DNA from: Roseomonas sp.
Lineage (GTDB): Bacteria; Pseudomonadota; Alphaproteobacteria; Acetobacterales; Acetobacteraceae
Direction: 5' to 3'
NCBI GenBank assembly: GCA_031180725.1
Contig: JAPSLO010000008.1
Coordinates: forward strand, 127,471-191,470
DNA length: 64,000 nucleotides
Position 1 is the first letter of the stretch, and each line of letters begins with the position of its first letter. A model generated the notes under the pieces. That model saw only the letters and a list, made by a program, of their open reading frames with translations, was not told where the DNA came from and did no database searches. Shown piece after piece: positions 1 through 15,443 of this stretch. The translations under genes were made by a program, and so were the position numbers.

Positions 1-3000
1 CCAGCATGCCGCCGAACACTGGCGTGCCCACTGCGCGGCGGGAGGCGCTGGCCGCGCCAGTGGCCACTACCAGCGGCACCAGGCCCAGGATGAAGGCCAC
101 CGAGGTCATCATCACCGCTCGGAAGCGCTGTCGCGCCCCCATGATCGCGGCGTCCCGGATGCCCATGCCCTCCTCGCGCCGCTCCTTGGCGAATTCCACG
201 ATCAGGATGCCGTTCTTCGCCGCCAGCGCGATCAGCACCACCAGGCCGATCTGCGCATAGACGTCGAGCGCCATCCCCGTGAACCAGATCGCCAGGAAGC
301 TGCCCAGCACGCCGACCGTGACGGACATCAGCACCGGCACCGGGATCACCCAGCTTTCGTACAGCGCCACCAGGAACAGGTAGGCGAAGAGCACGGCCAG
401 GGCGAGGATGATGCCGGTCTGGCCGCTGGCCAGCTTTTCCTGGAAGGCGGTGCCGGTCCATTCGAAGCTGTAGCCCTGCGGCAGGGTGCGCGCGGAGATC
501 TCTTCCATCGCCAGCAGCGAATCACCCGAGGAGACGCCAGGCGCCGCCGCGCCGCTGATCGAGACCGACCGCACGTTGTTGTAGCGGTTGATGGTCTGCG
601 GTCCCAGCACGATGCGCGCCGTGGCCAGCGAGCTGAGCGGCACCATTTCCCCGTTCGAATTGCGCACATGGATGCGCCAGAGGTCAGGGATGTCGTCGCG
701 GTCCGCCGCCTCACCCTGCAGATTCACCTGCCAGGACCGGCCATAGATGCTGAAGTCGTTGACATAGAAGCCGCCCAGCGTGGCTTGCAGCGCGGCAAAG
801 ATGTCGCTGATCCGCACCCCAAGGGACTGGGCCTTGTCGCGGTCCACATCCAGGAACAGGCTGGGCGTGTCGGCTGCGAAGGTGGAATAGACGCGCGTCA
901 GACGCGGATCCTGGTTGGCGGCAGCTACCAGACCCTGCATGGCGCTGGCCATCTCCTCCGGCGGGCGGCCTTCCAAGTTCTGCAACTGGTACTGGAAGCC
1001 CGAACCGGTGCCGAGGCCGATGATTGGCGGAATGTTGAAGGCGAAGCCGGCGGCGGTGCGGATCTGCTGCAGCCCGCCGAAGACGCGCCCGATCGCGGCA
1101 TAGACACTTTCGTTCGGCGCGGTGCGCTCCGCGAAGGGCTTCATGCGCACCACCAGGAAGGCGGCGTTGGACTGCGCGCCATTGTCCACCAGCGAGAAGC
1201 CGACGATGGACAGCACCTGCTCCACACCCGGGGTCGGGCGGATCAGCGCCTCGGCCTGCTCGACCACGGCGCGGGTACGGCCGAGGCTGGCGCCCTGCGG
1301 CAGTTGGAGCTGCACGAAGAAGGCACCCTGGTCCTCCTCTGGCAGGAAGCCCTGCGGCGTCTGGCGGGAAATGCCGTAGATCCCCACGCCAAGCCCGGCC
1401 GTGATCAGCAGCGAGATGATGGCGAGACGCACCAGCCGCGCCACCACCGCGCCATAGGCATCCCGCACCTTGTCGATGCCGCGCATGACCAGGCCCAGCG
1501 GCCCGCGCCGCGGCCCGTGATGCGGCCGCAGCACCAACGCGCAGAGCGCCGGCGAGAGCGTCAGCGCATTGATTGCCGAGATCACCATTGCCACGGAAAC
1601 GGTGACCGCGAACTGCGCGAAGAGCACGCCCGAGAGACCCGGGATGAAGCCCACCGGCACGAAGACCGAGAGCAGGACCAGCGTGATGGCGATGATCGGG
1701 CCGGTGATCTGGCCCATCGCCTTCTTGGTGGCCTCAGCGGGGGTCAGGTGGGGCTCCTCTTCCATCACCCGCTCGACATTCTCCACCACCACGATGGCAT
1801 CATCCACCACGATGCCGATGGCCAGCACCATGGCCAGCAGGTTCACCGTGTTGGCGCTGAAGCCCAGCAGCAGCAGCACCGCGAAAGTACCGATCAGGCT
1901 GACCGGCACCGCGATGGTCGGGATGATGGTGGCGCGCAGGCTGCCGAGGAACAGCAGCACCACGATCACCACCAGCACGAAGGCCTCGAGGAGGGTCTTG
2001 ATGACTTCGTGGATCGTGTCCTGGACGAAGGTGGAGGTGTCGTAGAGGGTCTGGTAGCTCATGCCCTCCGGGAAGGTGCGCGCCATCTCGTCCAGCGTGC
2101 GGGTCAGCGCGGCCGAGGCCTGCACGGCGTTCGCGCCAGGCGAGAGATAGGTACCGATAGTGATCACGGGCCGGCCGTCCAGCCGGCTCTCGGTGTCCAT
2201 CCGGGCGGCGCCGAGTTCAACCCGCGCCACGTCACGCACCCGCAGAAGCGAGCCCTGCGCATTGGCGCGGATGACGATGTCGCCGAACTCCTCGGGCGTG
2301 CTGAGGCGGCCCTTGGTCTGCAGGTTGATCTGATATTGCTGGTCGGAACTGATCGGCTGCGCACCGATGCGGCCCACCGCCGCCTGCACATTCTGCGCCT
2401 GGATCGCGGCGATGACGTCGGCGGGCGTCAGGTTCAGGCTGATCAGCCGGTCAGTCTCGAACCAGATGCGCATGGAATAGTCCATCGCGCCGAAGATGCT
2501 GGCCTGGCCGATGCCCGGCACGCGCGCCAGGCGGTCCAGGATGTTGATCGTCGCGTAGTTGGACAGGAAGAGCGGGTCGTGCTCCTCCTTCTCGGAGCGC
2601 AACGCAATGAACTGCAGCACGGCGGAGGATTGCTTGCGCACCGTCACGCCCGCGCGCTGGACTTCCTGCGGCAGACGCGCCAGTGCCGACTGCACGCGGT
2701 TGTTCACGTTCACCGTCGCGATGTCCGGGTTCGTGCCCAGGGCGAAGGAGACGGAGAGGTTGTAGGTGCCGTCATTGGCGCTGTTGGAAGACATGTAGAT
2801 CATGCCCTCCACGCCGTTTACGGCGCTTTCGATCACCTGCGCCACCGTCTGCTCCACGACGGAAGCGGAGGCGCCGGCGTAGGTGGTGCTGACGGAGACC
2901 TGAGGCGGCACGATGTTGGGAAACTGCGCCACGGGGATGCGCAGCATCGCCAGCCCGCCGGCCAGGGTCAGCAGGATGGAGATGACGATCGCTAACCTCG

Positions 3001-3028
3001 GGCGATCGACGAAGACGGAACTGATCAT
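1..3028 (-). CDS. RND efflux transporter permease subunit (AcrB/AcrD/AcrF family), 3' end runs off the window
   Basis: Manual translation from ATG 3028 gives [55 protein letters not shown], a typical AcrB-family N-terminus. A later TM segment ([20 protein letters not shown]) sits near 190-250. It is absent from the ORF track because its stop is outside the window. Confidence 0.95.
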
Positions 3029-3034
3029 CTGCCG

Positions 3035-4207
3035 TCAGCCTTGCGGGGCGCCCTGGGCGCCGGGGCGCACCGTCGGCGGCTGTACGGGGCCGGGCTGCAC
3101 GGGCTGGCCTGGACGCACGCGCTGGACGCCTTCGGCCACCACACGTTCACCCCCTTCCAGCCCGCCTTCGACCACCACCTGATCGGCGATGCTGCGGCCA
3201 AGCTGCACGCCACGGCGCTGGGCCCGGTTCTCGCCATCTACCACGAAGACATAGTTGCCTGCCTGGTCCTGAAGCACCGCCGCGCGCGGGATCACCACCG
3301 CCTGCACCGGCTCCGCCCCCTCGACGAAGACGGAGACGAACATGCCGTCGATCAGGGGGCGGTCGGCAGTCCCCATCCCGACTCCCTCAATCGGCGGATT
3401 GTCGATCACGGCGCGCACCAGCACAGTATCCGTGCTGCGGTCCACCTGCGGATCGATGAAGTCGATGCGCCCGGCCGCGCCATGCAACTGTCCGTTCGGC
3501 AGCCGCACCCGCACGCGCACGGCATCGGAACCGCCCCGCGACGCGTAGCGGTCGCGCAGCTCCGACCCGGTGCGCAGCGAGACAGGGAAGCTGACACGCA
3601 TTGGATCCTGGCTGACGATGGTGGCTAGGGGTTCGCTGTTGGGCCCGACGACCGAGCCCACTGAATAGGTTGCGCGGCCAATCTTGCCGGCGACGGGGGC
3701 GGTGATCTCCGTATAGCCGAGGTTGATCTGCGCCACGCGCAAGGCGGCCTGGGCGCCCAGCAGATTGGCCTGGGCGGTGCGCTGTTGGGCCGTCGCCTCG
3801 TCCACGCGCTGCTGCGTGCCGGCGGAGGATCGCATCAGCTCCCGCGCGCGATTCAGGTTGAGCGTGGCGTTGGTCAGCTCCGCCTCGGCAGAGGCCACCT
3901 GCGCCTGGGCGCGCGCCACCTCGGCCTCGAAGGGCGCGCGTTCCAGGCGGAACAGCGGCTGGTTCGCTGCCACTTCCTGCCCTTCGCGGAACAGACGCTC
4001 TTGCAGGAAACCGGTGACGCGGGCGCGTAGATCAACGCGATTGATCGCCTCGATCCGGCCCACGAATTCCGATGTTTCGGTGACCGAGCGGCGTTCGGCG
4101 GCGATGACGCCGACGGCGGGCGGGCCCTGCGGGCCGAATTGTGCCGCGGCGGGCAGGGCCACCAGGATGAGCGGCGTCGCCACGAGCAGCAGGCGGACGT
4201 AGCGCAT
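3035..4207 (-). CDS. RND efflux periplasmic adaptor (membrane fusion protein)
   Basis: ORF 3035..4255, likely start MRYVRLLL at 4207. Contains VDLRARVTGFL, a helical hairpin and LGYTEITAPVAGKIG, and lies directly upstream of the RND permease. Confidence 0.93.
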   Translation of the reverse strand: MRYVRLLLVATPLILVALPAAAQFGPQGPPAVGVIAAERRSVTETSEFVGRIEAINRVDLRARVTGFLQERLFREGQEVAANQPLFRLERAPFEAEVARAQAQVASAEAELTNATLNLNRARELMRSSAGTQQRVDEATAQQRTAQANLLGAQAALRVAQINLGYTEITAPVAGKIGRATYSVGSVVGPNSEPLATIVSQDPMRVSFPVSLRTGSELRDRYASRGGSDAVRVRVRLPNGQLHGAAGRIDFIDPQVDRSTDTVLVRAVIDNPPIEGVGMGTADRPLIDGMFVSVFVEGAEPVQAVVIPRAAVLQDQAGNYVFVVDGENRAQRRGVQLGRSIADQVVVEGGLEGGERVVAEGVQRVRPGQPVQPGPVQPPTVRPGAQGAPQG

Positions 4208-4315
4208 GATGTTGTTCCAGTGGTTCGCGACATGCCAAACGCGGCCGCATCCCACCGTGAAGGCAGGGATGCGGCCGGAGCTGCACGCGCCAGTTCGTGT
4301 CTTCCCAGCAGTCCT

Positions 4316-4912
4316 TCAGCCAGCCGCGCGGGCTGATTCGAAGGCCTCGATCTCAGGCAGTAGAGTGAATGTAAAGCCGATCTCGTCAAGCCCGCGCAAC
4401 AGGCAGTCGCGCGCGAAGGGCGGGATCGTGAAGGTGTGCGCGGTCCCGTCAGGCGTCGTCAGCGTCTGTGCCGCCAGATCCACCGTGACTTGCGCGCCAG
4501 GGTTGGCATGCAACGTGGTACGCAGCGCAGTGCATTCGGCTTCCGGCAGACGTACCGGCAGCAACCCGTTCTTCAGTGAATTGTTGAAGAAGATGTCACC
4601 GAAGCTGTCCGCGACAACGCATCGAAACCCCAGCGCCTGCAGCGCATAGACCGCCGCCTCGCGCGATGATCCCACGCCGAAGTTGCGCCCGGCCACCAGG
4701 ATGCCGGCGCGGTCGAAGGGCGGGCGGTTCAGGATGAAATCCTCGCGCACCATCCCTTCCGGCGTGAAGCGCAGGTCGTGGAAACCGTATTGCGCATAGC
4801 GCTCATCACGCGGCCGCCGCATGAAGCGCGCGGGCATGATCTGATCAGTGTCCACATTCGCCATCTCGAGCGGCGCGGCGATGGCGGTAAGACGGGTGAA
4901 GGGCTCAGGCAC
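4316..4912 (-). CDS. 3-isopropylmalate dehydratase small subunit-like protein (LeuD paralogue)
   Basis: NVDTDQIMP and GRNFGVGSSREAA motifs. GTG start at 4912, 4 nt after the LeuC-like stop. Confidence 0.88.
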   Translation of the reverse strand: MPEPFTRLTAIAAPLEMANVDTDQIMPARFMRRPRDERYAQYGFHDLRFTPEGMVREDFILNRPPFDRAGILVAGRNFGVGSSREAAVYALQALGFRCVVADSFGDIFFNNSLKNGLLPVRLPEAECTALRTTLHANPGAQVTVDLAAQTLTTPDGTAHTFTIPPFARDCLLRGLDEIGFTFTLLPEIEAFESARAAG

Positions 4913-4916
4913 GGTG

Positions 4917-6281
4917 TCAGACCTCCGCCGCCACCAGCCGCCCCGCAAGTGCCGAGGCCGCAGCGGAAGCGGGCGAAACCAGGTGCGTGCGCGCCCCGCG
5001 CCCCTGTCGCCCGCGGAAATTCCGGTTGGAGGTGGAGGCGCAACGCTCGCCTTCGCCGACGCTGTCGCCGTTCATGGAGACACATAGCGAGCAGCCGCTC
5101 TCCTCCCAGCTCGCCCCGGCCTCGGTGAAGATGCGGTCGAGCCCTTCCGCCTCCGCGGCGCGCTTCACGCTGGATGATCCAGGCGAGACCAGCATCGGCA
5201 CCGCGATGCGCTTGCCTTTCACCACGGCCGCGGCCTCGCGGAGATCCTCGATGCGGGAATTGGTGCAGGACCCCAGGAAGACGCGGTCCAGCCGCACATC
5301 CGCCAGGCGTTCGCCGCCCTTGAGGCCCATATAGTCCAGGCTCGCCGCCCAGGTGGCGCGACGCGCGGCATCCGGCGCCTCCTCCGGCTTCGGCACGTGG
5401 CCGTGCAGCGGCACGGCCTCCTCCGGGCTGGTGCCCCAGGTGGCCATGGGCGAAATGTGCGTGGCGTCCAGCGACACTTCCGTGTTGAAACGGGCATCGG
5501 GGTCGCTGTGCAGGTCGCTGATGTCCACGGGCTTGGCGAAGGGGCGGCCACGCAGCCATTCCATCGTCACCGCATCGGGCGCCACCATGCCGGTGCGCGC
5601 GCCGGCCTCGATCGCCATGTTGCACAGCGTCAGCCGACCTTCGACCGAAAGGCCACGCACCGCCTCGCCGGCGAATTCGATGGCACCGCCGAGCGCGCCG
5701 CCGGTGCCGATCCGCGCGATCAGCGCCAGCGCCATGTCCTTCGCCGTGGCGCCAGCCGGCAGGGTGCCGGCGAAGGTCACGCGGATCTGGCGCGGCATGG
5801 TCTGCCAGATGGTTTGGGTAGCGAAGACATGTGCCACTTCGCTGGCGCCGATGCCGAAGGCCAGCGCCCCCAGCGCGCCGTGAGAGGAGGTATGGCTATC
5901 GCCGCAGACCAGGATCATGCCCGGCAGGGTCAGGCCCAGTTCCGGACCGGCGACATGCACGATGCCCTGCAAGGGATCGGCCAGCTCGAAGGCGCGAATC
6001 CCGGCTTCCTTCGCATTGCGCTCGAAGGTCTCGATGATGCCGCGGATCTCGGGGTCGGCGATGGCGCCGGTCGAGCGGGCACGGGTCGGGGCGTAGTGGT
6101 CGCCGAAGCCGAAGGAAAGGTCCGGCCGGCGCACCTTCAGGCCGCGGGCGCGGAGCATGTTGAAGGCATGGAAGCTGCCCTCGTGGAAGTAGTGCCGGTC
6201 CACATAGAGCAGGCAGAGCCCGTCTTCCCGGCGATGGACGACATGCGCGTCCCAGATCTTGGTGAACAATGTCCTGGGCAT
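4917..6281 (-). CDS. 3-isopropylmalate dehydratase large subunit-like protein (aconitase family, LeuC paralogue)
   Basis: MPRTLFTKIWDAHVV start, CGDSHTSSHGA, and Fe-S cysteines in FLGSCTNSR and SGCSLCVSMN. Confidence 0.9.
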   Translation of the reverse strand: MPRTLFTKIWDAHVVHRREDGLCLLYVDRHYFHEGSFHAFNMLRARGLKVRRPDLSFGFGDHYAPTRARSTGAIADPEIRGIIETFERNAKEAGIRAFELADPLQGIVHVAGPELGLTLPGMILVCGDSHTSSHGALGALAFGIGASEVAHVFATQTIWQTMPRQIRVTFAGTLPAGATAKDMALALIARIGTGGALGGAIEFAGEAVRGLSVEGRLTLCNMAIEAGARTGMVAPDAVTMEWLRGRPFAKPVDISDLHSDPDARFNTEVSLDATHISPMATWGTSPEEAVPLHGHVPKPEEAPDAARRATWAASLDYMGLKGGERLADVRLDRVFLGSCTNSRIEDLREAAAVVKGKRIAVPMLVSPGSSSVKRAAEAEGLDRIFTEAGASWEESGCSLCVSMNGDSVGEGERCASTSNRNFRGRQGRGARTHLVSPASAAASALAGRLVAAEV

Positions 6282-6345
6282 GATCCCTGGAAGCTGCGTC
6301 CGCCATGGCTGGACCGCAAGGGGTGGGCGGGGGCAGGTTGCGCGC

Positions 6346-7233
6346 ATGTGGTTCGACCCGCCAAAGGCCGTCACGGCTAACCTGCTGTCCCGCCTGCCGG
6401 ATGCGCTGCGGCGGCCCCGCCCTTCGGCCTGGGCCGAGGCGAACCGGGACGGGGCGCCAGTGGACAGCTTCCTGGAAGGCCCCTGCTTCGACGGGGCGGG
6501 CAACCTGTTCTGCGTGGACGTCCCCCATGGCCGCGTCTTCCGTGTCTCCGGCAGCCATTGGGAGGTGGTGGCTGAATATGAGGGCTGGCCCAACGGCCTG
6601 GCCCGGCGCGGGGAGGAACTGATGGTTGCCGACCACCGCCATGGGTTGCTGGCGCTGGATCCGCGCGATGGCGCCATGGCCCCGTTGCTGGAAACGCTGC
6701 GCGGCGAGGCCTTCCGCGGACTGAACGACGTGATTCCGCACCCGGATGGCTCTCTGCTGTTCACCGACCAGGGCCAGACCGGCCTGCAGGACCCTTCTGG
6801 CCGGGTCTATCGGCTGCATGCGGACGGCCGGCTTGACCGGCTGATCGGCAACGGTCCCAGCCCGAACGGGCTCGCCCTGAACCGCGCGGCCAGCCACCTG
6901 CATGTGGCGATGACCCGAAGCTGTGAGGTGTGGCGCTTCGCCCTGCGGCCGGATGCGGTGGTGGGCCAGGCCAACCTGTTCTTCCGCGCCCCCGCCGGCA
7001 CATCCGGCCCGGACGGCTTGGCGATGGATGCGCATGACAGGCTTTTCGTCGCCAATCCCGGCCATGGCCAAGTCTGGGTGGTGGACCCGCACGGCGTCTG
7101 CACGCATCGTGTGGATTGCACCCCCTTCGGCCGCATGCCGACGAATCTGACGCTGGCGCCGGACGGCCAGACGCTGGTGATCACGGAAAGCCAGTCCGGC
7201 AGCCTCTTGGCCGCCGAGATCCCTGCCCCCTGA
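6346..7233 (+). CDS. SMP-30/gluconolactonase/LRE family protein
   Basis: FLEGP, WPNGL, LNDV, SPNGL and GPDGL beta-propeller motifs. ATG at 6346, divergent from the leuC-like gene. Confidence 0.9.
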   Translation: MWFDPPKAVTANLLSRLPDALRRPRPSAWAEANRDGAPVDSFLEGPCFDGAGNLFCVDVPHGRVFRVSGSHWEVVAEYEGWPNGLARRGEELMVADHRHGLLALDPRDGAMAPLLETLRGEAFRGLNDVIPHPDGSLLFTDQGQTGLQDPSGRVYRLHADGRLDRLIGNGPSPNGLALNRAASHLHVAMTRSCEVWRFALRPDAVVGQANLFFRAPAGTSGPDGLAMDAHDRLFVANPGHGQVWVVDPHGVCTHRVDCTPFGRMPTNLTLAPDGQTLVITESQSGSLLAAEIPAP

Positions 7234-7243
7234 CCTGTGGCGC

Positions 7244-7298
7244 TTGACGCGGTTCAGCCAGGCTCACATCTACATCCCGGCATTAGAACGTCGTTCTA
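7244..7298 (+). promoter_or_regulatory. sigma70-like -35 (TTGACG) and 15-bp palindrome TAGAAC-GTC-GTTCTA, candidate IclR operator
   Basis: TTGACG at 7244-7249 and a perfect dyad at 7284-7298, upstream of the IclR gene. Confidence 0.5.
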
Positions 7299-7344
7299 TG
7301 GAACAGAATGCCGCCTGGAGCGCTCACGAACTCGGTCCGGTCGG

Positions 7345-8055
7345 ATGACAGCCGCCCCCCTGCCCGGCCCTGAGGCCAACCCGCCCCCTCTGGCCCCGCA
7401 CGAGCAGGGCGTGGCCGCGGTGGATCGCGCCCTGTCTCTGCTGGCCGCCTTCCGGGACGGCGAGGCAGCACTCAGCTTGGCCGAGCTCGCCGCCCGGACG
7501 GGACTCTACAAGAGCACCATCCTCCGGCTCCTGGCGTCGCTGGAGCGACACCGCTGCGTGGAACGCCAGGCGGATGCGCGCTGGGCGCTGGGGCCGATGC
7601 TGTTCCGCTGGGGCAGCCTTTATGCCCGTGCCCGGCCGGTGGAGCGTCAGCTGCCCGCGGCGCTCCGCGCCTTGGCCGAGGCCAGCGGCGAGACGGCCAG
7701 CTTCTGGGTCCGCCATGGTGCGCACCGCCTCTGCCTGGCGCGCGTAAGGGCGCCGAACCCGATTCGGGACGACATGAACGAGGGCGATCTGCTGCCCCTG
7801 CCCGCCGGCGCCGGCGGCCGGGTGCTCGCCGCGCTGGACCCGCGCGCGCTCGGCACGATCGCCACCTTCGGGGAACGCAATCCGGAGACAGCGGCGGTGG
7901 CCGCTGCCGTCTTTGGCCCGGGTGGCGCGCTGGCCGGCGCCATCGGCATCTCCGGCCCGCGGGACCGCGTGGCAGCGCGCCAGGCGGCACACCGTGTCTC
8001 GGTAGCCACCGCTGCCATGGAACTCACCCGCCGCCTCGGCGGCGATCTGGGATGA
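7345..8055 (+). CDS. IclR family transcriptional regulator
   Basis: AVDRALSLL...LSLAELAARTGLYKSTILRLL HTH and a C-terminal AAAVFGPGGALAGAIGISGP effector domain. Confidence 0.93.
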   Translation: MTAAPLPGPEANPPPLAPHEQGVAAVDRALSLLAAFRDGEAALSLAELAARTGLYKSTILRLLASLERHRCVERQADARWALGPMLFRWGSLYARARPVERQLPAALRALAEASGETASFWVRHGAHRLCLARVRAPNPIRDDMNEGDLLPLPAGAGGRVLAALDPRALGTIATFGERNPETAAVAAAVFGPGGALAGAIGISGPRDRVAARQAAHRVSVATAAMELTRRLGGDLG

Positions 8056-8056
8056 C

Positions 8057-8986
8057 ATGCAGATGACACGCGACGTGACGGTCAGCGAGGTCGGCCCACG
8101 CGACGGGCTGCAGATGGTGCGGCATGTGGTGCCGACAGCGACCAAGCTGCGCTGGATCGCCGCGCTGCACGCCGCCGGCCTGCCAGAGATTGAGGTGGCC
8201 AGCTTCGTGCCGCCGAATCTGGTGCCGCAGATGGCCGATGCGGCAGAGGTGACGCGCTTCGCCACCACCCTGCCCGGTTTGCATGTCGCCGTGCTGGCCC
8301 CGAATCTGCGCGGCGCCGAAGCCGCAGTGGCCGCCGGCGCGCACAAGATCACCCTGACCCTTTCGGCCAGCGAAGCGCACAGCCGTGCCAATCTGCGCCG
8401 AAGCCGCGCGGAGCAGATGCAGGTGGCGAAGGACGCCGCCGCTTATGTACTGTCCTTGCCCGGCAAGCGCCCCAGTCTGGAAGCCGGCATCAGCACCGCC
8501 TTCGGCTGCTCCATCCAGGGCGAGGTGCCGGAAGCGGATGTGGTGCAGATGGCGGTGGCACTGGCCGAGGCTGGCTTCGATTCCATCGGCCTCTCCGATA
8601 CCAGCGGCTATGCCAATCCGCAGCAGGTCCGCCGCCTGCTGCGCGCCGTGCGGACCGAGATCGGCGCGCGCTGCGACAGCCTGCACCTGCACGACACCAT
8701 GGGTCTCGGCCTGGCGAACGTGACCGTAAGCGTGGAGGAGGGCATCCGGATCTTCGATTCCGCCCTGGCGGGCCTCGGCGGCTGCCCCTTCGCGCCCGGC
8801 GCTTCTGGCAACATCGTGACGGAGGACCTAGTCTTTCTGCTGGAATCGCTCGGGCTCCGCACCGGCGTTTCGCTGGAAGCGCTGATGGAGGCGCGGCGCA
8901 TCCTGGCCGAAGCGCTACCCGACGAACCGCTGCACGGCGCCTTCGCCCGCGCCGGCCGCCCGACCGGTTGGAAGGAAGCCGCATGA
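8057..8986 (+). CDS. HMG-CoA lyase family protein
   Basis: EVGPRDGLQ, LHLHDT and GLGGCPFAPGASGNI motifs. Confidence 0.92.
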   Translation: MQMTRDVTVSEVGPRDGLQMVRHVVPTATKLRWIAALHAAGLPEIEVASFVPPNLVPQMADAAEVTRFATTLPGLHVAVLAPNLRGAEAAVAAGAHKITLTLSASEAHSRANLRRSRAEQMQVAKDAAAYVLSLPGKRPSLEAGISTAFGCSIQGEVPEADVVQMAVALAEAGFDSIGLSDTSGYANPQQVRRLLRAVRTEIGARCDSLHLHDTMGLGLANVTVSVEEGIRIFDSALAGLGGCPFAPGASGNIVTEDLVFLLESLGLRTGVSLEALMEARRILAEALPDEPLHGAFARAGRPTGWKEAA

Positions 8987-10164
8987 CCTCCCCTACCCCG
9001 CTGAAGGGGCTCCACGTCGTCGAGTTCACGCACATGGTCATGGGTCCGACGGTCGGCATGGTGCTGGCCGATCTCGGCGCCGATGTGGTGAAGGTGGAAC
9101 CCGCACCGAAGGGCGACACCACGCGGCACCTTACCGGTTCCGGCACCGGCTTCTACGCCGCCTTCGGCCGCGGCCGCCGCAGCCTGGCCATCGACATGAA
9201 GACGCCCGAGGGCATGGCGCTTGTGCGCCGGCTGGTCGCGCGCGCCGATGTCCTGGTGGAGAATTTCCGGCCTGGCGCCATGGCCCGGCTCGGCCTCGGC
9301 TATGCGCAACTCAAGGAGACGCATCCGCGCCTGATCTATTGCTCCTGCAAAGGCTTCCTGCCCGGCCCCTATGAGCATCGCACCGCGCTAGACGAGGTCG
9401 TGCAGATGATGGGCGGCCTAGCCTATATGACCGGGCTGCAGGGCCGGCCACTGCGCGCGGGCTCCAGTGTCATCGACATCATGGGCGGGCTTTCGGCCGT
9501 CATCGGCATCCTCGCCGCGCTGCGCGAAAGGGAGAGCACCGGTGAGGGCGGCGAGGTCCAGGCCGGGTTGTTCGAGACGGTAGCGCTGCTGATGGCGCAG
9601 CACATGGCACAGACCGCCATCACCGGCACGGCGCCGCTGCCCATGTCGGTGCGCACCCCGGCTTGGCCGGTGTACGACATCTTCGACACCGCCGATGGCG
9701 GCCAGGTCTTCGTCGGCGTGGTCACCGACACCCAGTGGCCGGATTTCTGCCGCGCCTTCGGGCTGGAGGACCTGGCCGCCGACCCGTCACTCGCCACCAA
9801 GCAGCAGCGCGTGGCCGCGCGGGACCGCACCCTGCCCCGCATCGCCGCGGAACTGCGCCGCTGGACCAAGTCCGACCTGATGGCGAAATGCGAGGCGCTG
9901 GGCCTTCCCTTCGCGCCAATCGGCAAGCCGGCCGACCTGTTCGAGGATCCGCATCTGAAGGGCTCTGGTGGGCTGGTGCCGCTGACACTGCCGGATGGCA
10001 GCCGGGTGGAGCTGCCCGCCCTGCCCGTCTCGCTGGATGGTACCCGCCCCACCGGCGGCGATCTGCGTCCGCCTGGTGCGGATGGGGACAGCGTGGCCCG
10101 GGAACTGGGCTATGCGCCGGACGAGATCGCGGAGCTCCGCGCCCGCGGCATCCTCACAAGCTGA
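8983..10164 (+). CDS. CaiB/BaiF family III CoA-transferase
   Basis: PLKGLHVVEF, GADVVKVE, ADVLVENFRPG and ALDEVVQ motifs. ATGA overlap with the upstream lyase. Confidence 0.93.
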   Translation: MTSPTPLKGLHVVEFTHMVMGPTVGMVLADLGADVVKVEPAPKGDTTRHLTGSGTGFYAAFGRGRRSLAIDMKTPEGMALVRRLVARADVLVENFRPGAMARLGLGYAQLKETHPRLIYCSCKGFLPGPYEHRTALDEVVQMMGGLAYMTGLQGRPLRAGSSVIDIMGGLSAVIGILAALRERESTGEGGEVQAGLFETVALLMAQHMAQTAITGTAPLPMSVRTPAWPVYDIFDTADGGQVFVGVVTDTQWPDFCRAFGLEDLAADPSLATKQQRVAARDRTLPRIAAELRRWTKSDLMAKCEALGLPFAPIGKPADLFEDPHLKGSGGLVPLTLPDGSRVELPALPVSLDGTRPTGGDLRPPGADGDSVARELGYAPDEIAELRARGILTS

Positions 10165-10167
10165 TTC

Positions 10168-10995
10168 TCAGCCGGTGACGAAGATTGGCGCCGGGCTGTC
10201 GCGCAGCAGGCGATGCGTGGTGCTGCCCAGCAGCAACCGCGCCAGTCCGCCGCTGCCGAAAGCGCCCATGACCAGCAGCCGGATGCCCAGCCGCCTCGCC
10301 TCCTGCGGGATGGTTCCGGCCGCATCATCACCTACCAGGGGCAGCAGCGTCACCTCACGGCCGGGCAGCAGGGGGCGCGCCTGCTCGGCCAGGGCCTCCG
10401 CAGCCGCGTGCTCCTCGCCCAGGCTCACCACCATCACGGGCGCCTCCGGCGCCAAGCCAGACGCAGCGTAGAGTTCCACGGCATGGCGCGCCGGCGCGGT
10501 GCCGTCGAAGGCCACCAGCACCGGGCCCGACCGCGGCAGCGGGCCGGGCGGGATGACCAGGAGCGGCGCAGCGCGATCACGCAGCAGCGCCTCGATCACC
10601 GGGGCGACGCCGCCATCCGCGGCCTCGCCACCTGGCGTGGAATCACGGCCGATCACCACCAGGTCATGGGCTGCGCCGGCCTTCAGCAGCGCCGCCTCCG
10701 GCGCGTCCTCCAACTGCTTCACCTCCACGGAGAGCCCTTGCGCCGCGCTCTGGAAAGCATCCAGCGCGGCCTTCACATCGGCCTTCAGCCGCGCGCCCAG
10801 CGTCGCATCGCGATGCGCGCGGAAGGCATCGCCACCGAGCGGCACGGCCTCGTGCTCCGGCGCGTTGTGCGGACGGTCCAGCACCACCGCCGCCGTCAGC
10901 ACGGCGCCGCATTGCCGCGCCATCGCGGCCGCTTCCTGACCGGCGGCCATGGCACCGGGCGTCTCGTCCAGCAGCACGAGGATGCTTCGCAACAT
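10168..10995 (-). CDS. universal stress protein (tandem USP domains)
   Basis: RSILVLLD...DLVVIG and VLVAFDG...LLVMGAFG...LLLGSTT motifs. Confidence 0.9.
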   Translation of the reverse strand: MLRSILVLLDETPGAMAAGQEAAAMARQCGAVLTAAVVLDRPHNAPEHEAVPLGGDAFRAHRDATLGARLKADVKAALDAFQSAAQGLSVEVKQLEDAPEAALLKAGAAHDLVVIGRDSTPGGEAADGGVAPVIEALLRDRAAPLLVIPPGPLPRSGPVLVAFDGTAPARHAVELYAASGLAPEAPVMVVSLGEEHAAAEALAEQARPLLPGREVTLLPLVGDDAAGTIPQEARRLGIRLLVMGAFGSGGLARLLLGSTTHRLLRDSPAPIFVTG

Positions 10996-11034
10996 CGGGT
11001 CTCCATCTCCCCTGCCGTTCCGGACACTAACGCA

Positions 11035-12261
11035 TCATCCCGCGGCGCGTCGCGGCTGCATCAACAGGAACAGGGTGGTGCAGATCACCAGCCCCGCCGC
11101 AAAGGTCAGCAGCGCCGCCGGCACACCGCCCCAGGCCGCCGCCACGCCGGACGCCGCCTGCATTACCGCCGCGCCAAGGAAGAAGGAGAGATTCGCGGCT
11201 GAGAGCGCGCGCCCCGCTTCCTCCGGCGGCACGGCGGCGCGCACCAAGGTGAAGCCGATCACCTGGCAGGAAATGACGAGGCCGAAGGCCACCAGCAGCA
11301 CCAAGTCCCACGCCGCCGGCAGCATCGGCAGGCCGAGCGCCACGGACAACACACCACCCGGCCCACCCGCCACGATCAGCAGGATGAAGGCGGCGCAGAC
11401 ATAGTGGCTGCCCGCCATCAGCAGCCGGGCGCGGCCGGTGCGCCGCATCAGGATGCCCGCCACCGCCGGGCCGATGGTCAACGCCACCGCGCAGGCCAGC
11501 AGCAGATTGCCGGCTTCCACCCGCGGCAGGCCCTTCACCTCCATCAGCCAGGGTCCGCCCCACAAGCCACGCAGTCCCAGCACTGCCGCGAAGGAGGCGA
11601 AGACGAAGGCGACAACGCCGCGGATATGCGGCCGACCGATCATCGCCACGGTGGCCTTCACATCACCCCAAAGACTGCGCCGCGCCGGCTGCGCCGGTGG
11701 ATCATGTGGCACCAGCAGAGCAATGCCCGCGATGGCCAGCGCCGCCAGCCCGGCGCAGGCCAGGTAGCCGGCGCGCCAGCCGCTGGCCTCGATCAACAGA
11801 GCCAGCGGGCTTGCGGAGAGCAGCATGCCGCTATTGCCCACCGCCTGGACGATGCCGGACCACATGGCGAAGCGCTGCTGGCTCAGCACCCGGGCGGCAT
11901 AGGTGATGGGGCACATCAGCATGCCCGAACATCCCGCCCCTAGCACCACCTGCGCGACGAACATCATCCAGGGGCTAGTGGCCAGGGCGGCCAACACCGC
12001 GCCGCTGCCCGCGACCGTCAGCAGGCCGAGCGCCGTGCGCTGCACGCCGAGCCGGTCCAGCGCCACGCCCACCGGGATCATCACCGCCGCGAAGGCCGCC
12101 GGGAAGACGCCGGTGAGCTGCGCCAGCACCTCCGCGCTGATGCCGAGGTCGCGCGTCAGCACATCCACCGCTACCGCGGGGATGGTGCGCACTGCGTTGG
12201 AGAAGACATGGCCAAGACACAGCACGAGAATCGGGATGGCGAAGCCCTGGGCGGCCGTCAT
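11035..12261 (-). CDS. MFS transporter
   Basis: About 12 hydrophobic segments and motif A (GVALDRLGVQR). Confidence 0.88.
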   Translation of the reverse strand: MTAAQGFAIPILVLCLGHVFSNAVRTIPAVAVDVLTRDLGISAEVLAQLTGVFPAAFAAVMIPVGVALDRLGVQRTALGLLTVAGSGAVLAALATSPWMMFVAQVVLGAGCSGMLMCPITYAARVLSQQRFAMWSGIVQAVGNSGMLLSASPLALLIEASGWRAGYLACAGLAALAIAGIALLVPHDPPAQPARRSLWGDVKATVAMIGRPHIRGVVAFVFASFAAVLGLRGLWGGPWLMEVKGLPRVEAGNLLLACAVALTIGPAVAGILMRRTGRARLLMAGSHYVCAAFILLIVAGGPGGVLSVALGLPMLPAAWDLVLLVAFGLVISCQVIGFTLVRAAVPPEEAGRALSAANLSFFLGAAVMQAASGVAAAWGGVPAALLTFAAGLVICTTLFLLMQPRRAAG

Positions 12262-12321
12262 GCGATGTGTCTCGTTTCCCCCGCGCCCCCGCGCCGGCCG
12301 CGCGGGGCGATTACCGCCAGG

Positions 12322-13716
12322 CTAGTTCCGGAACATCTTGCCCGGATTCATGATGCCCTTCGGGTCCAGCGCGGCCTTCAGGCTGCGCATCACCGCCAGC
12401 GCTTCCACCCCGTGCTCGCGCTCCAGGAACTCGCGCTTGCCCAGCCCGATGCCATGCTCGCCCGAGCAGGTGCCGCCCAGCGACAGACCGCGGCTGACGA
12501 TGCGCCGGTCCATGTCCCAGGCGCGCTCCAGCCCCTGCGGGTCGTTCGGATCATATAGGACCATCTGGTGGAAATTGCCGTCGCCGACATGCCCGACAAT
12601 GCAGGTGGCGTGGCCGAGTTCCTTCGCTTCCTGCTTGGCCCCCACCAGGGCTTCCACCAGCCGGGAAATCGGCACGCAGACATCGGTGGTCAGTGCCTTC
12701 CAGCCCGGTTTGCTGGCAACACCCGCCCAGTAGCTGTCATGCCGCGCCTTCCACAGCTTGGCTCGCACCGCCGGGTCGCTCGCCCATTGGAAGCCGGTGC
12801 CGCCATTGGCCGCGGTGATCGCCTCCACCGCCTCGGCCTGTTCCTTCACCCCGGCTTCGCTGCCGTGGAATTCCAGGAACAACGTGGTCAGCGGCGCATA
12901 GCCTTCCAGCTTCGAATAGGCGATGGACGCCGCCATCATGTCGTCGTCCAGCAATTCGATCCGGGCCACGGGGATGCCGGTCTGCATCACCTCGATCGTG
13001 CTACGCACCGCGCCTTCCAGCGAGGCGAACTGCACGACGGCGGCGCTGGTGGCCTCCGGGATGCCGTGTAGGCGCAGGCGGATCTTCGTCACCACGCCCA
13101 GCGTGCCCTCGCTGCCCACGAAAAGCCGCGTCAGGTCGTAGCCATTGGCTGCCTTGCGCGTGCGGCCGCCGGTCTCAATCACGCGGCCATCGGCCAGCAC
13201 CACTTCCAGGCCCAGCACATTCTCCCGGATGGTGCCGTAGCGCACGGCGCAGGTGCCGGAGGCACGCGTAGCCACCATGCCGCCCAGCGTGCAGTGGCTG
13301 CCGGGATCCACGGGGAAGAACATGCCCTGGTCGCGCAGGTATTCGTTGAGCTGCTGGCGCGTGACGCCCGGCTCCACCAGGCAGTCCATGTCGTCGGCAT
13401 TCACCTCCAGGACCCCCGTCATACGGGACAGATCCAGGCTGATGCCGCCGCGCACCGGGTTCACATGGCCTTCCAGGCTGGTGCCGGCGCCGAAGGGCAC
13501 CACCGGCACCTCATGCTGGTGGCACAGCTTCACCAGGCGGCTGACTTCCTCCGTGGTCTCCACGAAGGCGACGGCATCCGGCAGGGTCGGGGTGGTGTTG
13601 TCCTCGCCCTTTGCATGCTGTTCCCGGATGGTGGCGTTGAGGCTGAGCCTGTCGCCCAGGAATTCGCGGGCGGCAGAGATCACCGCATCCACCGGGCGCG
13701 GGGAGATGGTGTTCAT
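12322..13716 (-). CDS. FAD-linked oxidase, D-lactate/glycolate dehydrogenase (GlcD/Dld) family
   Basis: PFGAGTSLEG, FFPVDPG, GSEGTLG, GHVGDGNFH, GEHGIG and MNPGK motifs. Start MNTISP at 13716. Confidence 0.92.
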   Translation of the reverse strand: MNTISPRPVDAVISAAREFLGDRLSLNATIREQHAKGEDNTTPTLPDAVAFVETTEEVSRLVKLCHQHEVPVVPFGAGTSLEGHVNPVRGGISLDLSRMTGVLEVNADDMDCLVEPGVTRQQLNEYLRDQGMFFPVDPGSHCTLGGMVATRASGTCAVRYGTIRENVLGLEVVLADGRVIETGGRTRKAANGYDLTRLFVGSEGTLGVVTKIRLRLHGIPEATSAAVVQFASLEGAVRSTIEVMQTGIPVARIELLDDDMMAASIAYSKLEGYAPLTTLFLEFHGSEAGVKEQAEAVEAITAANGGTGFQWASDPAVRAKLWKARHDSYWAGVASKPGWKALTTDVCVPISRLVEALVGAKQEAKELGHATCIVGHVGDGNFHQMVLYDPNDPQGLERAWDMDRRIVSRGLSLGGTCSGEHGIGLGKREFLEREHGVEALAVMRSLKAALDPKGIMNPGKMFRN

Positions 13717-14579
13717 GTCGGGTCTTCCTCCCGCGTGAGCGGGCATGTCAGGCAATGCGGTCCACCACCGCCGGCGGCGAAGAGGGAAAGATCGGGATCG
13801 AGCACGGAGAGCCCCTCGGCCCGCAGCGCCGCATTCAGCGCCGCGCTGCCGCGGGAGGAGATCACGCGCCCCTGGCCCAGCGCCAGGATGTTGCAGCCGA
13901 GCTGCATCGCCTCCCGGTAGGGCACCGGGATGGTACGGATGCCTCTCTCGCGCAACCAGGCCAGGAACCCCTCCTCCAGCACATCGGTACAAGCCACCGC
14001 CAGGCCGGGTGCGGCCATGCAGAACAGCACGTCCAGATGCAGGAAATGCTCGTCGAACGGCTCGATGCGGCATTCCCAGCCTTCCGCCTGCAGCCAGTCG
14101 GCGAACTGCGCCGCGCCTGCCTGGTCCGTACGGCCGCCGCTGGCCCCTACCACGGCCAGCCCCGGGCGGATCACATGGATGTCGCCCCCTTCCAGCGTGC
14201 CGGCACTGGATTTGCGCCAGAAGCCGCTGCCCTGGGCGGCGTGCCAATCCATGACGCCGGCATATTCACCGCGCCGCTGCGGCCGTTCCAGCTGGCAGAG
14301 CACCGGCCCCCAGGGGGTCACCACCACCTGGTCGCGGGTATAGGCCATGTAAGGCAGATGGGGCTCCGGCGGCAGGCGGTGCACGGTGCAGCCAGCCTGC
14401 TCCAGCGCCGCCACCAGCTCCGCATGCTGGGCCGCGAAGGCCGCGGCCGGCGGCAGCGCGGCGGCCGAGAGGGTGCGCCGCGCCACGGCGTTGGTCGGGA
14501 TCCAGTGGTAATGGGTCGGCGGGCAGACCAGGACCTCGCGCAGCAGGCCCGTCTCGCTCGCCACGGCAAAGCGCGGCAT
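13713..14579 (-). CDS. amidinotransferase / dimethylarginine dimethylaminohydrolase (pentein) family protein
   Basis: SETGLLREVLV, YTRD, LEGGD, HLD and GGPHCLT catalytic motifs. Its stop overlaps the downstream ATG. Confidence 0.88.
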   Translation of the reverse strand: MPRFAVASETGLLREVLVCPPTHYHWIPTNAVARRTLSAAALPPAAAFAAQHAELVAALEQAGCTVHRLPPEPHLPYMAYTRDQVVVTPWGPVLCQLERPQRRGEYAGVMDWHAAQGSGFWRKSSAGTLEGGDIHVIRPGLAVVGASGGRTDQAGAAQFADWLQAEGWECRIEPFDEHFLHLDVLFCMAAPGLAVACTDVLEEGFLAWLRERGIRTIPVPYREAMQLGCNILALGQGRVISSRGSAALNAALRAEGLSVLDPDLSLFAAGGGGPHCLTCPLTREEDPT

Positions 14580-14687: not shown

Positions 14688-15443
14688 ATGGCCAATGGCG
14701 TGAAGGCAGCCTGGGCGGCGGGGCGGCCCGTGGTGAATGGGTGGCTGGCCATCCCCTCCGGTTTCAGCGCGGAAGTCATGGCCCAGGCCGGCTTCGACAG
14801 TCTGACGGTGGACATCCAGCACGGCGTGCAGGACTACCTCTCCATGATCGCCTGCTTCCAGGGCATGCAGCCGCATGGCGTGACCCCGATGGTCCGCGTC
14901 CCCTGGAACGAGCCAGGCATCATCGGCAAGGTGCTGGACGGCGGCGCAAAAGGCGTGATCTGCCCGATGGTGAACACCGAGGCCGAATGCCGCGCCCTGG
15001 TCGCGGCCTGCCGTTACCCGCCGAAGGGCACGCGCAGCTTCGGCCCTATCCGCTCCGGGATCTACGGCGCCGCGGCCGACACCAATGCGGCGAATGACGA
15101 TGTGCTCGTCATCCCGATGATCGAGACGAAGACAGCGTTGGACAACCTGGAAGCGATCGTCAGTGTGCCGGGCGTGGACGGCATCTATATCGGCCCGTCC
15201 GACCTCTCGCTCTCGCTGGGGATGGAACCGAAGCAGGACCGGCAGGAGCCGGAGTTCCTGAAGATCCTGGACCAGATCCGCACCACCGCGGCGAAACACG
15301 GTGTGAAGACCGGCATCCACACGATGACCGGCGCCTATTCCAAGCAGATGTTCGAGCGCGGCTTCAACCTGGCCACGATCATGAACGACAGCGGCCTGAT
15401 GCTGACCGCCGCCCGCGCCCAGGTGAGCGTGGCGAAGGGCTGA
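14688..15443 (+). CDS. HpcH/HpaI aldolase family protein
   Basis: GFDSLTVDIQHG, VRVPWNE, MIET and YIGPSDLSL motifs. Confidence 0.9.
   Translation: MANGVKAAWAAGRPVVNGWLAIPSGFSAEVMAQAGFDSLTVDIQHGVQDYLSMIACFQGMQPHGVTPMVRVPWNEPGIIGKVLDGGAKGVICPMVNTEAECRALVAACRYPPKGTRSFGPIRSGIYGAAADTNAANDDVLVIPMIETKTALDNLEAIVSVPGVDGIYIGPSDLSLSLGMEPKQDRQEPEFLKILDQIRTTAAKHGVKTGIHTMTGAYSKQMFERGFNLATIMNDSGLMLTAARAQVSVAKG

Follow-up and report, generated by a model that had tools for sequence, protein, structure and literature searches.

The stretch of DNA analysed here (the window; 64,000 nucleotides, G000:C18:127471-191470) comes from a Roseomonas sp. genome of 5.7 Mb with 69% G+C, and the nearest relatives of its proteins bear the names Falsiroseomonas and Roseomonas (Acetobacteraceae). 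Towards its left end lie six closely spaced genes, for which a catabolic module of the citraconate/(R)-citramalate type had been proposed from the letters of the sequence. The minus strand carries the genes for the large subunit of a non-housekeeping LeuCD-type Fe-S hydro-lyase (LeuC2, 454 aa, 4917-6281; PF00330, 485.8 bits) and for its small subunit (LeuD2, 198 aa, 4316-4912; PF00694 and TIGR00171), the latter with a GTG start 4 bp past the LeuC2 stop. On the plus strand are the genes for a six-bladed propeller hydrolase of the SMP-30/gluconolactonase/LRE-like (SGL) family (295 aa, 6346-7233; PF08450, 122.8 bits), an IclR-family regulator (7345-8055, in a reading frame open from 7237; PF09339 and PF01614), an HMGL-family (DRE-TIM) acyl-CoA lyase (309 aa, 8057-8986; PF00682, 158.7 bits, and NF004283) and a family III (CaiB/BaiF) CoA-transferase (CoAT; 393 aa, 8983-10164; PF02515, 373.4 bits).

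All six open reading frames of the original prediction are borne out by the list of reading frames, their translations and the Pfam and NCBIfam matches. Its junctions are also as described. Direct reading of the sequence gives a divergent intergenic region of 64 bp between leuC2 and the SGL gene (6282-6345), a single base separates the TGA of the IclR gene from the ATG of the lyase gene, and the lyase and transferase genes have an ATGA in common (GCATGACC). Likewise, no leuA or leuB was found beside leuCD in the Pfam and NCBIfam annotation of the window region.

LeuC2D2 and the neighbouring enzymes

Judged by scores, tree and motifs, LeuC2D2 is a divergent, non-housekeeping LeuCD paralog. A housekeeping leuC-leuD-leuB set is present elsewhere in the genome (G000:C2 ~406-410 kb), so the window copy is not the sole leuCD. 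The LeuC of this set is 59% identical to LeuC2, and the identity of LeuC2D2 to housekeeping isopropylmalate isomerase LeuCD, which is of the same bacterial-type subfamily, is 55-59%. LeuC2 passes TIGR00170 only marginally, with 580.6 bits against a cut-off of 560.25, whereas the housekeeping LeuC scores 800.6; LeuD2 passes TIGR00171 with 184.3 bits against a cut-off of 116.25. A LeuC phylogeny, which had been suggested as a check on the prediction, was built from 41 sequences in a quick IQ-TREE run with SH-aLRT support only. It contains three well-supported groups, namely the housekeeping sequences (99), a clade B (99) and a long-branched clade A (100). The window copy falls within clade B together with the other second copies of the Acetobacteraceae, apart from the housekeeping clade. 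Placing clades A and B together is not rejected by an approximately unbiased (AU) test (p = 0.55), and the two may be one old non-housekeeping lineage. Since the test allows a single origin, a claim that the two clades were recruited independently was dropped.

Every clade, in an alignment that comprises 12 housekeeping sequences and 26 paralogs, retains the three Fe-S cysteines, DSHT and STSNRNF in LeuC and GSSRE in LeuD. LeuC2 has GSCTNSR, GCSLCVSMN, DSHTSSHG and STSNRNFRGRQG, and so keeps the three 4Fe-4S cysteine ligands and the catalytic DSHT, and in LeuD2 the GSSRE is found as GVGSSREAAV. GSCTNSR had been taken for a variant motif, but it is identical in the housekeeping LeuC and is therefore canonical; GCSLCVSMN, also called variant, does differ from its housekeeping counterpart, though only at non-cysteine positions. 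The substrate-contact segments on which all 12 housekeeping copies agree are, on the other hand, replaced in both non-housekeeping clades. HEVTSPQAF in the N-terminal part of LeuC becomes HE-GSFHAF in clade B and HERTGSxAL in clade A, DHN becomes DHY and DHI, respectively, and the FLKTIxRTG loop of LeuD becomes F[ML][RK][RK]PR[DS]xxY in clade B and REMK[RK]VSKEG in clade A. The window proteins read HE-GSFHAF and DHY in LeuC2 and FMRRPRDERY in the specificity loop of LeuD2. The shortness of LeuC2, correctly remarked on at the outset, is due to three deletions, of 1, 8 and 2 residues. Together, the separate leuCDB set, the membership of clade B and the changed segments uphold the view of this LeuCD as a non-housekeeping enzyme with altered substrate-contact motifs.

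The arginines of the LeuD2 loop (FMRR) were considered as a sign of a carboxylated substrate, by analogy with the YLRT of archaeal HacB. This argument was dropped, since Lys or Gln stands at that site in bacterial housekeeping LeuD already. Two further LeuC/HacA-like genes, of the archaeal type and 32-36% identical to LeuC2, are present at G000:C34 ~138.9-139.9 kb and 204.9-205.9 kb (L015 and L016), making four LeuC-like genes in the genome in all.

The lyase passes the NCBIfam model for the 3-hydroxy-3-methylglutaryl-CoA (HMG-CoA) lyase subfamily (NF004283; 294.6 bits, cut-off 246) and is about equally similar (~200-219 bits) to the five best solved HMG-CoA lyases. When aligned residue by residue to 2CW6 and 1YDO, it retains the catalytic Arg-Asp and Glu, the HxH metal ligands and the cysteine of the GGCP loop. 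The GLQNE(K) of HMG-CoA lyases is replaced with GLQMV(R), however, and SPKW with PPNL, and GLQ[MS][VAI] is found again in the majority of the lyase orthologs that are linked to a transferase. No leucine- or ketone-body catabolic genes adjoin the lyase gene, whose neighbours are those for IclR and the CoA-transferase. The transferase lies under every NCBIfam equivalog cut-off, its best match being to succinate-glutarate CoA-transferase (263 bits, cut-off 750), and is nearest to the dicarboxylate transferases. The Asp of its SSVIDIMGG aligns with that of VAMTD(L/I) in SUGCT and a formyl-CoA transferase, and the catalytic Asp is thus kept. No NCBIfam model for (R)-citramalyl-CoA lyase or (R)-citramalate CoA-transferase is among the matches of the window proteins.

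A second family III CoA-transferase gene, at G000:C6:301795-303908 (L097:5796-7909), overlaps an HMGL-like gene in the reversed order, with the transferase first, so that the genome carries at least two transferase-lyase pairs; the lyase of this second pair is 45% identical to that of the window. Other HMGL-like genes lie beside an AMP-ligase gene on C32 and beside an enoyl-CoA hydratase gene on C4, the latter (G000:C4:426341-427270; L099:7042-7971) with GTGGHP at the site of the catalytic cysteine loop, GLGGCP, of HMG-CoA lyases. Of the four HMGL-like paralogs that were found in the genome, not one has the canonical GLQNE.

EGP, PNGL and PDGLAMD motifs are visible in the translation of the SGL gene. 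The nearest solved structures are remote (DFPase, Drp35 and gluconolactonase, E ~1e-13 to 1e-10) and include phosphotriesterases as well as lactonases. The original prediction had this enzyme opening a lactone precursor, a role to which its family membership and the recurrence of SGL homologs beside the lyase-transferase pair at three other loci (L062, L068 and L050) lend weak support. The best NCBIfam match of the IclR protein is BhcR, far under its cut-off, and IclR homologs are found beside the pair in L065, L068 and L050.

Gene order in related genomes

The minus-strand LeuCD unit runs on, after a gap of ~60-108 bp, into two efflux genes that lie outside the cluster as first drawn. One encodes an RND membrane-fusion protein (MFP; 3035-4255, minus strand, with its likely ATG at 4207), assigned from its translation and the Pfam families of its homologs, and the other an RND inner-membrane pump (2-3028, minus strand), an open reading frame that extends past the window start and whose homologs carry ACR_tran. 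To the right of the transferase gene, at 10168-14247 on the minus strand, Pfam and NCBIfam place genes for a tandem-Usp protein, an MFS transporter and a GlcD-like FAD-linked 2-hydroxyacid oxidase.

Across 24 congeners a backbone of RND-MFP-LeuD-LeuC / SGL ... CoA-transferase, followed by Usp-MFS-FAD oxidase, is kept. The transferase is present in 24 of the 25 genus loci and SGL in 23, the MFP is syntenic in all of them, with synteny of the RND pump too, and the Usp/MFS/FAD-oxidase trio follows the pair in most congeners as well as in L062, a metagenomic relative. The counterpart of the 64-bp region measures 48-85 bp in most congeners and contains the conserved blocks GGAC(C/G)GCAAG and GGGCAGG(T/G)T. 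What lies between SGL and the transferase varies, from nothing to a TctC gene alone, TctC-IclR, TctC-IclR-HMGL or unrelated insertions; IclR is found in about half of the congeners, usually with a TctC gene before it, and two congener genomes have HMGL-CoAT without SGL. The six genes, which had been presented as a single module, are thus not one fixed module, as LeuCD, SGL and the transferase persist while IclR and TctC are variable and the lyase is found in 5 of 29 genomes.

Outside the genus, evidence for an association between LeuCD and the two CoA-dependent enzymes comes from clade A. Nine genomes in a class sample of 300 carry lyase orthologs (at least 54% identity), and in G157, G317 and G343 (on two replicons of the last) LeuCD lies within 8 kb of one; G343 has a tight LeuC-LeuD-CoAT-HMGL operon. 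A separate housekeeping leuC is also present in G343, G157 and G317, the three genomes checked. The same combination of LeuCD with lyase and transferase is found in a gammaproteobacterial metagenome-assembled genome (MAG). A search of a phylum sample of 400 genomes with clade-A LeuC gave four more loci, all four with a lyase and/or transferase ortholog within 9 kb. Altogether, clade-A LeuCD is accompanied within 9 kb by an ortholog of the lyase and/or the transferase at nine of nine loci examined (G343 twice, G157, G317, the gammaproteobacterial MAG, G769, G723, G611 and G673), which span several families and classes and whose orthologs are 50-62% identical to those of the window; at some of them the genes form a tight LeuC-LeuD-CoAT-HMGL operon. 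No genes other than those for LeuC, LeuD, the lyase and the transferase are consistently common to the nine.

For clade B, the combination is met again in another Acetobacteraceae genus (G003), in the order SGL-IclR / TctC-CoAT-HMGL-TctC-LeuC-LeuD. A further arrangement is seen in G072 (L051:6090-13686), where the order is GntR/UTRA regulator / clade-B LeuC-LeuD, a lyase of the ICL/PEP-mutase family, hydantoinase B and hydantoinase A. This cluster looks like one that would open a ring, hydrate the product and then cleave a C-C bond without CoA. Such recurring co-location across lineages supports a functional link between LeuCD and the lyase-transferase pair.

Other genes accompany some of these loci. 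In yet another Acetobacteraceae genus (G067, L048:8749-15466) clade-B LeuCD adjoins an itaconate/methylsuccinate-like cluster, with genes for an acyl-CoA dehydrogenase, MmgE/PrpD, an HMGL-type lyase, an alpha/beta hydrolase, a dehydratase-domain protein and a family III CoA-transferase; the lyase, 39% identical, replaces the usual CitE-type lyase. Two tandem polysaccharide-deacetylase-like genes occur at three of the nine clade-A loci (L072:2123-4020, L100:7465-9335 and L102:17519-19356), a call made by a Pfam scan of L072:3046-4020, of which the others are BLAST relatives. Two more recurrent genes, at three clade-A loci each, are those for an aldehyde dehydrogenase and for a glyoxalase/VOC-fold protein, and amide- or ring-hydrolase genes lie near some of the LeuCD modules.

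Some features of the wider neighbourhood are worth recording. The longest reading frame of the FAD oxidase (12322-14247) has 641 aa, but its domains begin at residue 223 and its homologs have 459 aa, so the true start probably lies some 180 codons beyond the first possible one. Beyond it lies a gene for an HpaI/GarL-type class II pyruvate aldolase of the HpcH family (14688-15443). Among the four genus loci that extend as far as this gene its identity is 90-94%, higher than that of any neighbouring gene (51-89%). It was considered as a stand-in CoA-ester lyase for congeners without HMGL, and rejected as an HpaI/GarL-type aldolase that is not CitE-like. To the left of the RND pump are genes for an FAD monooxygenase, a metallo-beta-lactamase-fold protein, an AraC regulator and an Ald_Xan_dh molybdoenzyme of ~772 aa (G000:C18:120125-122443; L060:10126-12444). 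The Ald_Xan_dh gene is also present in L017, L018 and L059; it comes directly after LeuD in an Acetobacteraceae MAG and after the RND pump in Humitalea and Limobrevibacterium, and no small subunits were recognised adjoining it in the window genome.

A possible route for maleate-type and alkylmalate-type acids

Our tentative reading, held with somewhat less than even confidence, is that the genes of this locus serve to degrade a dicarboxylic acid of the maleate or alkylmalate type (citraconate/(R)-citramalate, maleate/(R)-malate or a similar alkylmalate). The locus would be a mosaic of two divergent transcription units with separate evolutionary histories. LeuC2D2, no longer serving leucine synthesis, would hydrate or isomerise a cis-2-substituted butenedioate or a 3-substituted malate to an (R)-2-substituted malate, candidate reactions being those of citraconate to (R)-citramalate and of maleate to (R)-malate. 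The family III CoA-transferase would then put CoA on this acid, probably from succinyl-CoA, and the HMGL-family lyase would cleave the CoA ester to acetyl-CoA and a 2-oxoacid, pyruvate from citramalyl-CoA or glyoxylate from malyl-CoA. IclR is likely to be the local regulator and the SGL propeller may have an accessory part, hydrolysing a precursor that is a lactone, an anhydride or an ester, with uptake in relatives presumably by the products of TctC, MFS or TRAP genes. Citraconate/(R)-citramalate, the pair of the original prediction, is one candidate among several, the others being maleate/(R)-malate, other 2-alkylmalates and carboxyalkyl-malates. The direction of the reactions, every substrate, the CoA donor and co-regulation are what we infer, while the gene identities, the paralogy, the kept catalytic residues, the changed specificity motifs and the recurring gene combination are observed.

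Enzymes of the aconitase family convert substituted maleates into 2- and 3-substituted malates and back, and the hydroxyl carbon of the product bears a carboxylate. This would therefore fit cleavage of a 2-alkylmalyl-CoA, with the CoA on the distal carboxyl, and not that of HMG-CoA. As HMG is implausible as a product of LeuCD, the repeated association with LeuCD counts against a pure HMG role for the lyase orthogroup. The G072 cluster, with LeuCD and an ICL/PEP-mutase-type lyase, fits a CoA-free version of the same hydrate-then-cleave logic.

Several observations weigh against this reading. A lyase ortholog (at least 76% identity) was found in only 5 of the 29 genus genomes, the others holding only ~45% identical paralogs, so that in most congeners the last step would need another enzyme. 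Within a family sample of 121 Acetobacteraceae genomes, one per genus, transferase orthologs (at least 61% identity) are found at 37 loci; the lyase lies directly upstream at 25 of these, with adjacency counted by hand, and LeuCD adjoins the pair only in G003 and in the window's own genus. By these sequence comparisons, lyase and transferase make up an old unit of two genes that is widespread and usually lacks an adjoining LeuCD. Thus Roseococcus has a TRAP transporter followed by HMGL-CoAT-MFS, Limobrevibacterium has RND-MFP / HMGL-CoAT without LeuCD, and Acidiphilium and a Rhodospirillaceae MAG have the bare pair. In L062 the order is RND-MFP / SGL-HMGL-CoAT, then Usp ... MFS and FAD oxidase, again without LeuCD, and the MFP is also beside lyase-transferase genes without LeuCD in L059. 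The arrangements of L062 and Limobrevibacterium suggest that part of the adjacency in the window may be inherited synteny. Conversely, Humitalea has SGL / LeuC-LeuD-MFP-RND without the pair, and only the Falsiroseomonas/Humitalea lineage has LeuCD placed between MFP and SGL. The G003 lyase is from another HMGL subgroup and has REGFQ instead of RDGLQ. Finally, a simple scan for sigma-70 promoter and terminator consensus sequences gave no promoters, the 64-bp divergent region included, and two terminator-like sites, fewer than in shuffled sequence. Of the proposed linkage of LeuCD with lyase and transferase, the recurrence in many lineages therefore stands, but within the family the pair is mostly without LeuCD, and LeuCD is without the pair in Humitalea.

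Some of these points also speak for an alternative that we regard as unlikely but serious, in which the genes are neighbours by history. The self-contained pair would take an imported hydroxy-dicarboxylate (3-hydroxy-3-methylglutarate, citramalate or malate) to acetyl-CoA and a keto acid, and LeuC2D2 would belong with MFP-RND or other nearby catabolic genes; it could, for example, be a maleate hydratase that passes (R)-malate to the GlcD-like FAD oxidase. Such a history would account for the pair without LeuCD in Roseococcus, Limobrevibacterium, Acidiphilium, the Rhodospirillaceae MAG and at nearly all of the 37 family loci, for LeuCD-MFP-RND without the pair in Humitalea, and for a backbone from RND to FAD oxidase that is common to loci lacking LeuCD. 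The Ald_Xan_dh gene that adjoins LeuCD in the Acetobacteraceae MAG and the score of the lyase above the HMG-CoA lyase cut-off point the same way. It does not readily explain why all nine clade-A LeuCD loci, from several families and classes, have a lyase and/or transferase ortholog nearby, or why G003 rebuilds the combination in another gene order. HMG is, moreover, an implausible product for an aconitase-family enzyme, and the GLQNE of the two aligned solved HMG-CoA lyases, from human and B. subtilis, is replaced in the lyase orthogroup.

Two further explanations seem far less probable. That LeuC2D2 is a redundant isopropylmalate isomerase isozyme for leucine, with unrelated neighbours, would agree with the TIGR00170 and TIGR00171 cut-offs that it passes and with its full set of catalytic and Fe-S residues; it is nevertheless very unlikely, given the complete leuC-leuD-leuB elsewhere in the genome, a paralog clade apart from the housekeeping one, the replacement of segments invariant in housekeeping copies and non-biosynthetic neighbours that are conserved in all 24 congeners. 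Slightly more improbable still is a role in the anabolic direction, as a synthase-free 2-oxoacid elongation of the citramalate type. In this scheme the lyase would condense acetyl-CoA with a 2-oxoacid, the transferase would free the acid while conserving the thioester, and LeuCD would isomerise it for a LeuB-type dehydrogenase. The reactions of HMGL-type lyases and CoA-transferases are indeed reversible, but no LeuB-type dehydrogenase is present at the window locus or among the annotated genes of the clade-A loci, the lyase was not found in most congeners, and the neighbours (IclR, the hydrolase, carboxylate-binding and transport genes and the efflux pump) are typical of catabolism.

A broader proposal may also be considered, about which we are more doubtful. 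LeuCD, a succinyl-CoA-dependent family III CoA-transferase and an HMGL-type lyase might form a widespread bacterial route by which (alkyl)maleates or (R)-2-alkylmalates yield acetyl-CoA and a 2-oxoacid. The Falsiroseomonas locus would be one mosaic instance, with a propeller hydrolase and an RND pump. Its substrates would include citraconate, or maleate from the breakdown of rings and imides, and it would be an alternative to maleate isomerase and to the (S)-specific CitE-type lyases. The chemistry of citraconate, maleate and (R)-2-alkylmalates has been known for decades from enzyme work, and the route would supply a genetic basis for their use by bacteria. It would also explain the recurrent LeuCD paralogs that confuse pathway reconstruction, and the (R)-specific hydratase, transferase and lyase could serve in making or resolving chiral hydroxy-acids. 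The current annotation of the three enzymes, as belonging to leucine biosynthesis, to HMG-CoA/ketone-body metabolism and to a generic CaiB/BaiF transferase, is probably wrong for all three.

The first description of the cluster knew of no operon with this exact composition, and full-text literature searches on the themes of citraconate, citramalyl-CoA lyase, isopropylmalate isomerase with CoA-transferase, and maleate hydratase found none. What this case adds is the mosaic Acetobacteraceae variant, which has no LeuB, and the presence of lyase or transferase orthologs alongside clade-A LeuCD at every locus examined.

Known systems offer partial parallels. In Chloroflexus aurantiacus the Ccl and Sct genes are adjacent, and the window resembles them in encoding an HMGL-family lyase beside a family III CoA-transferase. 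The proposed logic is also alike, from a free 2-hydroxy-dicarboxylate through its CoA ester to acetyl-CoA and a 2-oxoacid, a likeness drawn by description. The corresponding activities, (R)-citramalyl-CoA lyase (EC 4.1.3.46) and succinyl-CoA:(R)-citramalate CoA-transferase (EC 2.8.3.20), are both listed in PMC8307300, and the coupled genes of the window match this (R)-citramalyl-CoA precedent, as had been predicted. Unlike Ccl/Sct, the window locus adds a LeuCD-type hydro-lyase, the SGL hydrolase, an IclR regulator and an efflux pump. With the HMG-CoA lyases (EC 4.1.3.4; 2CW6 and 3MP3 from human, 1YDO from B. subtilis and 2FTP from P. aeruginosa) the window lyase shares its fold family and catalytic residues, but it differs in GLQMV(R) and PPNL, in the translational coupling to a CoA-transferase and in having no leucine-catabolic neighbours.

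LeuC2D2 has the bacterial-type subfamily, the Fe-S and catalytic residues and the passed NCBIfam cut-offs in common with the housekeeping isopropylmalate isomerase LeuCD (EC 4.2.1.33/35), from which it is set apart by its separate clade, altered contact motifs and three deletions, and by the lack of leuA and leuB alongside. HbzIJ, the maleate hydratase of the gentisate pathway, is LeuCD-like, and in nicotinate fermentation the dimethylmaleate hydratase DmdAB acts ahead of C-C cleavage. By description only, LeuC2D2 may be likened to these two as a heterodimeric aconitase-family enzyme turned from leucine synthesis to the hydration of substituted maleates; PMC12294151 cites a paper on the maleate hydratase HbzIJ. 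The LeuCD and ICL/PEP-mutase-type lyase of G072 resemble DmdAB followed by Dml, the dimethylmalate lyase. Unlike DmdAB, which is of the archaeal-type subfamily, the window enzyme falls under the TIGR02087 cut-off, and the cleavage proposed for it would proceed via a CoA ester.

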